DNA from: Halorutilales archaeon Cl-col2-1 | GTDB taxonomy: Archaea > Halobacteriota > Halobacteria > Halobacteriales > Afararchaeaceae | Length of the DNA: 64,000 bases | Reading direction: 5' to 3' | NCBI GenBank assembly: GCA_041891055.1 | Contig: CP169074.1 | Location: 448,001 to 512,000 of the forward strand | Part shown: positions 10,938 to 18,195 of the stretch, one piece after another | Position numbering within the stretch: the first letter of the stretch is position 1 | Layout of the letters: every line of letters starts with the position of its first letter | The notes under the pieces: model-generated | What the model was told of the DNA's origin: nothing | Seen by the model: the letters and a program-made list of their open reading frames with translations, nothing else | Databases searched by the model: none | Program-made: the position numbers and the translations under genes

Positions 10938-11978
10938 TCAAGGCTTCACGAGAACCTTGATCGCCTCGCGGTCGTCCATCGCACGGTAGCCCTCAGCGAT
11001 CTCGTCGAGACTCACCGTCTTCGTGAATACCGGTGATGGATCGAGAGTACCCTGTAAGACGTCTTCCATGAGATCGTCGATGTACCCCCGGACGGGAGCG
11101 ACGCCTCCACGTAACTCGACGTTCTTCCGGAAGAAAGAGAAGAGATCCATGCCTCCCTCTTCGACGCCGTATGGGACTCCGACGTATCCGACAGTACCTC
11201 CAGGTCTACACACCTCGACAGCGGTCTCCATCGAAGACGCCGCACCTACACATTCGAGTACGTGGTTGGCACCGCCGTATGTGAGTTCACGTACGCGTTC
11301 GATGGCTTCCTCACCCCTCTCCGAGACTGTCTGGGTCGCTCCGAACTCCTCGGCGACTTCGAGCCTGTCGTCGTGGTGTCCCACCGCAATTACACGTTCG
11401 GCTCCGAGACGGCTTGCGGCTAGGACTCCACAGAGACCAACCGCTCCGTCCCCTATAACTACACACGTGTCGCCCTCTCCGACGCGGGCACTCTTCGCGG
11501 CGTGGTGTCCCGTACCCATGACGTCGGTGAGGGGAAGAAGGGCTTCGAGTGTGTCGTCGTCGGCGGCGTGTCTGTCAGGTATTCTCACGAGAGTTCCGTC
11601 GGCGTAGGGACACCGGACGTACTCTCCCTGTGCCCCGCCGTTTTCGTCGTCCCACGACTCGGATTTAACGCACGACGTGTAGAGACCCTTCCTGCAGAAC
11701 TCACAGTCTCCACAGCTTATAGAGAAGGGTGCCAGGACGCGGTCTCCGGGCTCGACAGACGTGACGTCGTCGCCGACCTCCTCGACTATCCCCATCGGCT
11801 CGTGACCAACGCGTGAACCCGGCTCCTGATCCTTCTCGCCGCGGTAGAACCAGAGGTCAGAGCCACAGATCGCAGTGTGTGTGATACGTACCACGGCGTC
11901 GTTCGGGCTGTCGACCTCCGGCTTCGGAACCTCCTCGACTGATATATCTCCGGGCGAGTTATAGACTGCGGCTCTCAT
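10938..11978 (-). CDS. Zinc-dependent alcohol dehydrogenase family protein
   Basis: Start MRAAVY; ICGSD, GHE, CGDCEFC, GDGAVG. Confidence 0.9.
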   Translation of the reverse strand: MRAAVYNSPGDISVEEVPKPEVDSPNDAVVRITHTAICGSDLWFYRGEKDQEPGSRVGHEPMGIVEEVGDDVTSVEPGDRVLAPFSISCGDCEFCRKGLYTSCVKSESWDDENGGAQGEYVRCPYADGTLVRIPDRHAADDDTLEALLPLTDVMGTGHHAAKSARVGEGDTCVVIGDGAVGLCGVLAASRLGAERVIAVGHHDDRLEVAEEFGATQTVSERGEEAIERVRELTYGGANHVLECVGAASSMETAVEVCRPGGTVGYVGVPYGVEEGGMDLFSFFRKNVELRGGVAPVRGYIDDLMEDVLQGTLDPSPVFTKTVSLDEIAEGYRAMDDREAIKVLVKP

Positions 11979-16457: not shown

Positions 16458-16565
16458 GTAGTTAGAGACACGAGTCCACAGCCTCTTTGACATCCTCCCG
16501 CGCCTAAAGTCGCGGGAATCCCACCTTGGGATATTAGGGTTTGTAGTCTACCTGTTCTTGTGGCA

Positions 16566-16612
16566 TCACCAAATCTACGATTTGGTTAGCCTCCAGATAC
16601 CGCATCTGGAGA
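16566..16612 (+). repeat. Twin-hairpin micro-insert 1 (CA duplication)
   Basis: ACCAAATC-TAC-GATTTGGT, TAGC, CTCCAGAT-ACCGC-ATCTGGAG; removal restores the TnpB tail. Confidence 0.8.
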
Positions 16613-17881
16613 CACTATTCCAGCCGTAGTATCGAACAGATAGACTCCGGGCTGTGCCAAACAGCCGTTACTCATATCCTCCGAGGGAGGACTCTGAGTT
16701 ATCTCTGAACTTCGTTCAGAGGTTAACGAAGCTTTGCTTCGTGATATCTTTCTGCGTATGTTCACCGCACCGTTCACGTCTGCGTTCATCACCGTATCAC
16801 ACGAACTACAGACGTATAGACCACGCTCTACACGGTTGCTGTCGTCTATCTTACCACAACAACAACAGGTCTTTGACGTATTTTCCTCGTCCACTCGGTC
16901 TACCAAGATACCGTACTCTTCGGCTTTGTACTCAAGCAGACGGGTGAAACGGTTGAACTCCCAACCGTGTAACTTCTTGTTACCTGACTTACCCCAGCTA
17001 CGACTCTCTCTGTCTTCGTCCTCTCGTATATCGCTCAAGTCACCTACCGCGATAGTTCCGACACCTTTCTCTACACATCGCTCTACGATGTGGCGAGACA
17101 ACGTGTGAAGGAAGTGGTCTTTCCTACGAGAGAGCTTACGACGCGCGCGTAACGCTCTTTTTGAAGGTCCGTCTTCACCTTCCGTCTGGTACTCTTCCCG
17201 CGTGAAGTAGTGTTTGTCCTGCTTGAGCCGGTTGCCGGGGTAGAGTTCTGCGTCACCGTCTTCGTAGGCTATAGCGACGTAGTTTTTTATTCCGAGGTCG
17301 ATACCCGCTACGTCGTCACCGGGAGCTTCTTCAACGGGAATTTCTTTCTTACAGACGATATGGACTTCCCATCTGTCTCCGTTCCACACCGCTCGTACTT
17401 GCTGTACGTTCTCGACTTCTACGTCTGGACGAGTCTCGTACTCCACGAGGATGTAGTCGCTACGACTCCCTTTTAGGTTCCAGCCTTTGGAGAGTCGTAG
17501 ACGGTTGTACTCGTCGTCGTGCTTGATGCCGCGTTTCTTCCATGTAACGGTAGAGCGTGGGTGGTCGTCGCCACGTTTTCTGTAGCCAGGGGGATTGTTT
17601 TCGTTGTCGGAGTTGTACCAACCGTTGAACGCCTCAGAAAGCTCTTCAAGAACTCTCTGACTGGACTGACTATGTAAGTCCTTGTAGCGTTCGTGGTCTT
17701 TCAACTCCGACTTGAGTTCGCTTTCGTCAGGTATCTCACCGTCTTCGTCCCAGCGTTCTTGGATGTAGTGGCGACCAACGTTCCATAGTTTCGAGGCGGA
17801 AAACCCGCACTTGTCGAGGTCGTCTTTGACCTGACTATGATTGGCTATCTTGCCAACATAGGTGCGGGTTGTTTCCAACAC
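16586..17881 (-). CDS. tnpB: RNA-guided endonuclease TnpB (C-terminus altered by an insertion)
   Basis: GIDLG, VGDL, EYKA, TSKTCCCC...CSSC, NADVNGAVNI; GTG start at VLETTRTY. Confidence 0.93.
   Translation of the reverse strand: MLETTRTYVGKIANHSQVKDDLDKCGFSASKLWNVGRHYIQERWDEDGEIPDESELKSELKDHERYKDLHSQSSQRVLEELSEAFNGWYNSDNENNPPGYRKRGDDHPRSTVTWKKRGIKHDDEYNRLRLSKGWNLKGSRSDYILVEYETRPDVEVENVQQVRAVWNGDRWEVHIVCKKEIPVEEAPGDDVAGIDLGIKNYVAIAYEDGDAELYPGNRLKQDKHYFTREEYQTEGEDGPSKRALRARRKLSRRKDHFLHTLSRHIVERCVEKGVGTIAVGDLSDIREDEDRESRSWGKSGNKKLHGWEFNRFTRLLEYKAEEYGILVDRVDEENTSKTCCCCGKIDDSNRVERGLYVCSSCDTVMNADVNGAVNIRRKISRSKASLTSERSSEITQSPPSEDMSNGCLAQPGVYLFDTTAGIVSPDAVSGG
16702..16744 (-). repeat. Twin-hairpin micro-insert 2 (TA duplication, in frame)
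   Basis: Minus strand: ACGAAGC-AAA-GCTTCGT, TAAC, CTCTGAAC-GAA-GTTCAGAG. Confidence 0.8.
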
Positions 17882-17978
17882 ATAATCGGTTATGTACCGT
17901 TCTATATTAAAGGAAACGAATATCCAAAACAGTCTGCACTTCATGGTTAGCTGAGTAGTTCGACGGATTCATCACCCG

Positions 17979-18027
17979 TCATCAGACGCGGAGCGTCTGA
18001 TTGGCTCGTAAATCTTCGATTTACGAA
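17979..18027 (+). repeat. Twin-hairpin micro-insert 3 (CG duplication)
   Basis: ATCAGACGC-GGA-GCGTCTGAT, TGGC, TCGTAAATC-TTC-GATTTACGA; splits the IS left-end stem. Confidence 0.85.
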
Positions 18028-18195
18028 CGCCTAAAGGCGGGTGTATTCTCCTGTACTATCTATAAACTGACGCCGCCGAACCGATCTATCTCATTTCTAA
18101 ACTGAGTTCTACCTCAGTCATACTCCAGTGTTTGAAGACCCCGCTTGGAGATAGCCTGCACAAATGCTTTAAATAGGTGATCTGTAGTCGGTTCC

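Follow-up and report, generated by a model that had tools for sequence, protein, structure and literature searches.

We examined a 64,000-nucleotide stretch of DNA (the window; contig CP169074.1, positions 448,001 to 512,000) from the Halorutilales archaeon Cl-col2-1, in which a single insertion sequence (IS) carries three short inserts, each made of two adjacent hairpins. The source genome (G000) has 2.06 Mb in four contigs, and its chromosome (C1) is about 1.9 Mb long. The host of the inserts is an IS1341-type (TnpB-only) element of the IS200/IS605 family, located on the minus strand at window 16487..18052, with approximate limits drawn from similarity to a paralogous copy at C2:36393-37784 that was 84% identical to it in the alignment. 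The tnpB open reading frame (16586..17944, minus strand, 452 amino acids) gave matches to the Pfam domains OrfB_IS605 and Cas12f1-like_TNB; it reads through insert 2 and terminates within insert 1. The sot/omega-RNA region (16496..16704, minus strand), which is interrupted by insert 1, was matched by Rfam RF02656 (sot0042) over 209 bases with model positions 1-174 covered in full, at 74 bits and E 1.4e-18, a score below the gathering score of 88; apart from this match, Rfam returned for the window IS only a chance-level HgcC match, and no family for the twin hairpins. The right-end subterminal hairpin of the IS (16496..16517; 7-bp stem, 8-base loop) is intact and was aligned to the paralogue hairpin. 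The left-end subterminal hairpin (17973..18043) is split by insert 3, with six bases of the 5' arm at 17973-17978 and the remaining arm, the loop and the 3' arm at 18030-18043; in the C2 paralogue this hairpin is uninterrupted and shows compensatory stem changes compared to the window copy.

Insert 1 (16566..16614, plus strand) is a twin hairpin plus one CA, 49 bases in all, with hairpins at 16568-16586 and 16591-16611, the linker TAGC, and CA on both flanks. Insert 2 (16702..16746, minus strand) is a twin hairpin plus one TA, 45 bases, lying in frame within the C-terminal part of tnpB; its hairpins are at 16703-16721 and 16726-16742, with a TATCT direct repeat on either side. Insert 3 (17979..18029, plus strand) is the canonical twin plus one CG, 51 bases, with the linker TGGC and hairpins at 17981-18001 and 18006-18026, the second of which is of the common TCGNNAATC type. 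The head tags of inserts 1, 2 and 3 are CATC, TATC and CGTC. Folded as single-stranded DNA, each insert formed two hairpins on either strand at -12.7 to -16.1 kcal/mol (z -5.3 to -7.4), and no shuffle out of 200 folded equally well. An earlier note on this DNA had reported three such inserts in one IS and no further copies in the 64 kb. All three were found where it had put them, at 45-51 bases with one copy of the flank included, and the window held three clusters, all within the host IS.

The C2 paralogue is without insert 1, with a junction 2 bases different, and is cleanly without insert 2, with a single TA at the site. Metagenome contigs of at least 85% likeness were compared in four runs. 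Since none of the runs contains over 30% of the words of the stretch, these contigs were assigned to other organisms and used simply for the homologous elements in them. Insert 2 was skipped as exactly 45 bases (with 5 ambiguous letters) in all four runs, insert 3 was skipped as 51 bases in three of the four, and insert 1 was skipped or replaced in three of the four. The earlier note had further proposed that excision of each insert with one pyrimidine-purine (YR) dinucleotide restores a feature of the host. For insert 2 this was the case, since taking it out with its TA gives a paralogue-like TnpB C-terminus, and likewise for insert 3, where taking out the insert and one CG makes the left-end hairpin continuous again; for insert 1 the proposal held in part, as removal rejoins the sot/omega-RNA region but leaves a junction 2 bases off the paralogue. 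Insert 2 gives TnpB 15 extra residues in frame, and insert 1 replaces the final 10 residues of the paralogue. Together, the insertions leave the window IS with a split left-end hairpin, an interrupted omega-RNA scaffold and an altered TnpB C-terminus, and this copy has probably been disabled by them.

A twin 100% identical to insert 2 was present at the same site in a solo right-end remnant (C1:335177-335216) with flanks 85-91% identical to the window IS. An identical twin within diverged flanks points to site-specific re-insertion or to gene conversion.

Family size and architecture of the unit

The genome was scanned for perfect hairpins (stem of at least 7, loop of 3-6), and 1117 hairpins and 153 adjacent pairs (twins) were obtained. 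The inserts of the window are therefore no isolated oddities, given the 1-4 twins per simulated chromosome. For the chromosome alone, 985 hairpins and 135 pairs were observed, whereas second-order Markov simulations of it, five in number, yielded 721-788 hairpins and 1-4 pairs. The excess hairpins were those with 3-base loops and 8-9 bp stems, the loop-3 count being 454 versus about 200 simulated.

Aligned by their loops, the hairpins gave the consensus A-CGT-Y, a stem ending in AATC, a 3-base loop (starting with T in 75%), a return stem starting with GATT, and then G-C-C; the first stem positions were mostly C and G, and the loop was closed by a C-G pair. CGT at -12 to -10 from the loop, followed by C or T and accompanied by the G-C-C tail, occurred in 126 of 514 loop-3 hairpins, and the variable stem positions were complementary in 84% of 194 AATC-NNN-GATT sites. 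Each unit thus starts with CGTY, continues with a stem of 8-9 bp whose two arms enclose a loop of mostly 3 bases, and closes with a short GSC tail. The dimer is two units placed tail to tail and sharing the GSC tail (CGTC-hairpin-TGGC-hairpin-AACG); its size is 43-49 bp, or 45-54 bases including the flanking repeat, and its inverted ends are just 4-5 bases. The two hairpins of a twin are related by a dyad, like inverted units of the repetitive extragenic palindromes (REPs), whereas the ends of IS608 stand in direct order. Arrays of up to 9 hairpins, alternating in orientation and with AACGTC junctions, were also found; dimers landing beside or inside one another build these arrays, in the manner of bacterial interspersed mosaic elements (BIMEs).

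The suggestion of the earlier note that the unit is recognised by shape rather than sequence found no support in that form, in view of the conserved tags and linkers (CGTY head, TGGC or GGC linker, AACG end, C-G loop-closing pair) and of sequence subfamilies with identical copies at unrelated loci. The hairpin types found in first and in second position combine modularly, the sequences of the two hairpins of a twin differ, and identical or near-identical twins occur at unrelated loci; the family thus falls into sequence subfamilies, and shape alone does not define it.

A congener (G001; DNA identity to the source genome of 92-96%) was aligned over about 130 kb. Where twins were shared by the two genomes, the differences were mostly single and uncompensated, and broke a stem in one genome; in-place compensatory evolution of the stems was rejected for this reason, and the perfect stems seen genome-wide accordingly reflect which copies amplify, rather than repair in place. 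One compensated stem pair was seen, between copies carried in tnpB in the source genome and in G011, a genome of another family.

Empty sites, targets and distribution

Between related sequences, it is the dimer of 45-54 bases that is gained or lost as a whole. At least 12 pairs of filled and empty sites were found among paralogous repeats within the source genome. Compared to orthologues in the congener, the source genome had five twins of its own (48, 48, 48, 51 and 54 bases), the filled sites with an empty orthologue being C1:1618559, 1621354, 1774564, 1851606 and 645159, as well as one array of 8 hairpins; one twin of 48 bases was specific to the congener. Four of the alignments between the two genomes, about 42 kb, were scanned down to 15 bases, and none of the six indels of 15-29 bases found in them was a single hairpin, which argues that the dimer is what moves. 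The claim of a non-coding mobile unit with empty sites was thereby borne out from the paralogue, the metagenome contigs and the congener. A 210-base unit, in which the loop of an IS end palindrome holds six hairpins, is present three times; a fourth version has only the outer two hairpins, which shows that the linker of an older twin received later, nested insertions.

Two further differences between the genomes concern hairpins already in place. The congener (C4) has a 49-base deletion corresponding to C1:246240-246288, between AATCTC repeats situated in arms of two different hairpins; what remains is a chimeric hairpin whose arms are not complementary, so that arrays also decay by repeat-mediated deletion. 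A hairpin in the Hel308 gene (C1:1726850 versus congener C17, L142 ~11840-11870) has the same stem in both genomes and a reverse-complemented loop (GTA versus TAC), which suggests either a palindrome flip or independent insertions in opposite orientation.

The flanks of the twins were mostly CG on both sides (33 CG/CG among the 41 oriented twins listed, with flanks parsed by eye), and CA/CA, TA/TA, CG/CA and CA/CG were also present. Most of the empty paralogues within the genome showed one CG, CA or TA at the site. Where the filled site had CG to its left but CA to its right (three sites), the empty counterpart had CG; among 11 empty sites, about 5 had TC after the target dinucleotide. In each of the five orthologous pairs, the empty allele of the congener was 1-2 bases off the 3-5-base direct repeat that flanks the filled site in the source genome (repeat CGTC versus empty AATC, CTTC or CATC; AACGT versus AATGT; ATC versus ATA). 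The flanking YR described in the earlier note therefore stands insofar as the same dinucleotide is usually found on both sides, but a clean target duplication does not. For the M24 peptidase gene, outgroup proteins agree with the flanks of the source genome, which makes the empty allele of the congener the derived one. The mismatch between empty allele and flanking repeat could be an excision scar, or could come from target conversion or from survival of resistant alleles.

Target preference was assessed for 144 clusters obtained by a relaxed scan, a TnpB element being taken as -1900 to +500 bases of the TnpB TNB domain. TnpB elements contained 51 of the 144 clusters versus about 5 expected, so that the enrichment in IS200/IS605 elements which the earlier note had wished to see checked was indeed obtained, and 23 of 32 TnpB loci carried at least one cluster. 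Cluster numbers were highest on the right-end/omega-RNA side of these elements and peaked again at their left end. Removal of the cluster restored a palindrome with a stem of at least 8 bp at 26 of the 144 sites versus 16 of 432 control sites; insert 3 and an array at L001 are examples that split IS end hairpins. Repeated DNA lay on at least one flank of 88 of the 144 clusters. The dimers land preferentially in TnpB elements, in or beside the end palindromes and the omega-RNA region. A twin was also seen in the 5' part of a ~780-base insertion specific to the source genome (C1:256043-256821), whose translation resembles a fragment of another IS type; the hosts are accordingly not confined to the IS605 type.

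Less often, the dimers land in frame in housekeeping genes and are read through as 15-18 extra residues. In-frame copies were found in the genes for SAM synthetase, an M24 peptidase, a Hel308-type helicase, an aminotransferase, ThiN, an intein-bearing PolB, ArgG and an Xer-like integrase. The 16-residue insert of the M24 peptidase is missing in the congener (96% identical) as well as in 3 other genomes, while that of SAM synthetase, with 18 residues, occurs in both the source genome and the congener and is missing in 4 other genomes. Every genic copy examined was a multiple of 3 bases and stop-free, and is therefore most likely translated. Removal at the RNA level, by a mini-intron or by translational bypass, was considered and rejected on the same two grounds. 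The PolB gene (L088, C1:641649-646688) is a 1679-amino-acid frame with Hint/intein and LAGLIDADG matches; a 51-base twin specific to the source genome lies in it at residue 1171, inside the match to the intein-splicing domain (975-1359).

The commonest hairpin-type motif was counted in 41 genomes, with a reversed control pattern that gave 0. There were 43 counts in the source genome, 36 in the congener, 1-8 in six other Halobacteriales, and 0 in 33 of the 41 genomes. A structure-only scan for twins in 400-kb samples of four genomes gave 72.5 per Mb in the congener, 12.5 in G011, 7.5 in G005 and 22.5 in G002, the last being a genome of 67% G+C whose twins were mostly G+C-rich chance pairs. In this genus of haloarchaea the family has expanded greatly. 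Homologous TnpB elements of Natronorubrum, Halarchaeum, Halosimplex and other genomes also have twins beside their right ends.

A distinct subfamily was also noted, with a first stem starting CGAGA, a TGATCA-like linker and a second stem starting CGAAA (C1:13883 and 916699 in the source genome; L217 in the congener, L187 in G002, L224 and L227 in G005, and L028 and L050). It recurs in distantly related Halobacteriales, often just past the right end of a TnpB element, and could represent either an older lineage or a component of certain IS ends. A near-identical twin lies inside tnpB of three paralogues in the source genome (C1:129993, 219451 and 1930867), and nearly the same twin, with the one compensated stem pair, is found in G011 (L246 15998-16040) about 580 bases downstream of tnpA; twins can thus travel between genomes inside IS elements.

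How the dimers may be moved

We lean, with only moderate confidence, towards reading the inserts as gene-less mobile dimers of tagged hairpins that are moved in trans by an enzyme whose substrate is folded DNA, either single-stranded or cruciform. A trans-acting protein would recognise the folded hairpin together with a short ACGT-containing tag, and its action on such DNA would account for the favouring of palindromes and of transposons with single-stranded stages. Once inside an IS, copies would also spread passively with that IS and by gene conversion between IS copies. The best available candidate, although unproven, would be the sole Y1 HUH transposase of the source genome, an IS605-type TnpA (C1:979038-979397; 135 amino acids, the only PF01797 match in this genome), which is encoded divergently from a tnpB. 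Y1 TnpA genes are present in both high-copy genomes, that is, the source genome and the congener. Insertion at an RNA stage, which the earlier note had raised beside single-stranded DNA, received no support.

Several observations weigh against this reading. The Y1 gene is an ordinary IS605-type tnpA beside a tnpB, not a repeat-flanked REP-associated tyrosine transposase (RAYT), and no RAYT-like arrangement was found when looked for in the source genome; the end palindrome of the tnpA-bearing IS has itself been invaded by twin hairpins. Among the 41 genomes, TnpA was found in 3 of the 8 that have the motif and in 13 of the 33 that lack it, with no correlation of presence and absence, the five motif-positive genomes without TnpA being 78-91% complete. 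The hairpins of the twins also differ from those of IS ends (compared, among the 32 TnpB loci, for the window IS family and the tnpA-bearing IS): they are A/T-rich near a 3-base loop, whereas the host IS end hairpins are G+C-rich with 4-8-base loops, and they stand in inverted order, unlike the direct order of the IS608 left and right ends. The junctions are likewise unlike those of IS200/IS605 elements, the transposition of which makes no flanking direct repeats, since 2-5-base direct repeats flank most copies; nor are these repeats simple target duplications, as the five differing empty orthologues indicate. Finally, one apparent insertion (C1:1843458) has flanks 95-97% identical at a paralogous IS and is better explained by gene conversion. 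Single tagged hairpins showed no strand bias (47 plus, 54 minus) and no regional switch, but this is a weak test because each near-symmetric dimer carries one tag per strand.

The dyad symmetry of the ends and the same dinucleotide on both flanks in most copies, together with the single CG, CA or TA in most empty paralogues within the genome, are what would be expected if the dimers moved by cut-and-paste like a miniature inverted-repeat transposable element (MITE), a DDE transposase binding the ACGTY...RACGT ends and making a 2-base staggered cut at YR (mostly CG) that duplicates 2 bases. We regard this as improbable. The inverted ends of 4-5 bases are short for it; no parent IS turned up, although no systematic search was made; the three CG-left/CA-right sites have CG when empty, and the flanking repeat is lacking in the empty allele of all five orthologous pairs. 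A bias to palindromes and to IS605-type ends would, moreover, be unexpected for a DDE enzyme. The enzyme might instead be a tyrosine or serine site-specific recombinase acting on a folded hairpin site, the excised circle or hairpin (AACG|TC) recombining with YR-TC secondary sites; this would be akin to integron attC cassettes or to the single-stranded integration of CTX phage. The targets often resemble the head of the element itself, with TC after the dinucleotide in close to half of the empty sites, the array junctions read AACGTC, and the mixed CG/CA flanks could be unresolved heteroduplex; yet no candidate enzyme was identified, no circular junction was observed, and the Xer-like integrase that was examined is itself an insertion target, so that we hold a recombinase to be very unlikely.

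It is also conceivable, but in our judgement distinctly improbable, that no dedicated enzyme is involved and that only the carrier IS is mobile, the hairpins being spread by host replication and repair through template switches at palindromes, copying from arrays primed by microhomology, and gene conversion among copies of the IS. The twin at C1:1843458 fits gene conversion, the congener deletion between short repeats in hairpin arms and the inverted Hel308 loop are of the kind that such processes leave, and the junctions are untidy, with empty alleles that differ from the flanking repeats. This account meets difficulty with the identical twins at unrelated unique sites, including housekeeping genes without flanking homology, with the constant 45-54 bases of the inserted unit, and with tags conserved at both ends. 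A bolder proposal, which we offer only tentatively and think rather doubtful, is that of a haloarchaeal REP/BIME-like dyad parasite, built from a tag and a hairpin and served by a non-RAYT enzyme, homing on the folded ends and guide-RNA genes of TnpB elements either as a hyperparasite or as an anti-transposon agent favoured by the host, and inserting in frame in essential genes as well. If this were true, the mismatch of the empty alleles would be a footprint of the chemistry, that is, excision scars or conversion of the target to ACGT-type ends. The mechanism of mobilisation can be tested in two closely related genomes that have about 70 twins per Mb and differ at many sites in whether a twin is present.

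Comparison with known systems

In behaviour, the closest parallel is SMR-A (HqIRS42/43/55) of Haloquadratum walsbyi, described as gene-less, frequent, about 110 bp long, bounded by prominent inverted terminal repeats, free of a target duplication, and as inserting preferentially in the near-terminal palindromes of IS605-type transposons and PATEs (Dyall-Smith et al. 2011, PMC3119063); in the portions of that paper devoted to them, their mobilisation is called 'enigmatic' and they are proposed to inactivate IS605-type elements. The present twins are also gene-less, haloarchaeal and biased to IS605-type elements and palindromes, in the proportions given above. Set against the published description of SMR-A, they differ in being 43-49 bp, in having two different short hairpins with 4-5-base tags, and in usually being flanked by a repeated dinucleotide. 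The same source describes terminal-only PATEs, such as the 52-bp core-deleted HqIRS46 / ISHwa23, as gene-less, suspected of being mobile, and made of two near-terminal palindromes (PMC3119063). Like these, the twins have about 50 bp, two palindromes and no gene; but the palindromes of PATEs, as described there, are the ends of a parent IS605-type element in direct order, whereas those of the twins are unlike the host IS ends and stand in dyad order. A PATE is expected to insert 3' of a fixed target of 4-6 bases without duplicating it; the twins have YR, mostly CG, to their left, this is repeated to the right in most copies but not in all, and the empty orthologues differ from it. If, as is probable, it disables TnpB elements at three functional non-protein parts, namely the end hairpin, the omega-RNA and the end of the reading frame, the family bears on how RNA-guided transposons are controlled by genomes or by rival parasites.

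In the architecture of its unit the family resembles the CGTC-tagged REPs, which in the account of Di Nocera et al. (2013, PMC3733652) are bacterial only, occur in 5 phyla with no dedicated transposase known, and have some copies inside genes; that account gives them 8-9 bp stems with the first two pairs A-T, loops of 4-5 bases, a CCA tail, and a predominance of head-to-head dimers. The shared features, as far as that description goes, are an unpaired tag of the CGTC, TGTC or CCTC type, 8-9 bp stems, a 3-base tail, dimers and clusters, and genic copies. The twins differ from them in their mostly 3-base loops, C-G stem start and GSC tail, and in that the polymorphic unit is a tail-to-tail dimer, head-to-head junctions occurring only in arrays.

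REPs, BIMEs and the REPIN-RAYT systems of bacteria are high-copy palindromes of alternating orientation in which the doublet is likely the mobile form, the stems show compensated variation, and the two REPs of a REPIN pair together. The high copy number, the alternating orientation, the doublet as mobile unit and compensated stem variation recur in the present family; the GTAG tag and the repeat-flanked single-copy RAYT do not, and the two hairpins of a twin differ in sequence. Rickettsia palindromic elements (RPEs) insert in frame in housekeeping genes and are translated, RPE-1 being longer than the present twins. The likeness lies in the in-frame palindromic insertions, and the copies in SAM synthetase, PolB, Hel308 and others form an archaeal parallel to it; the difference, as judged by description, is the greater length of RPE-1 and the unrelated bacterial lineage. 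RPEs, a form of palindromic selfish DNA, are cited by Di Nocera et al. (PMC3733652).

In the literature searched, no description of an archaeal REP-like family of tagged palindromes was found, apart from the differently built SMR-A and PATEs of Haloquadratum. The twins share the behaviour of SMR-A and the unit architecture of the CGTC-tagged REPs, as these are described in the sources named, but fail defining features of both.

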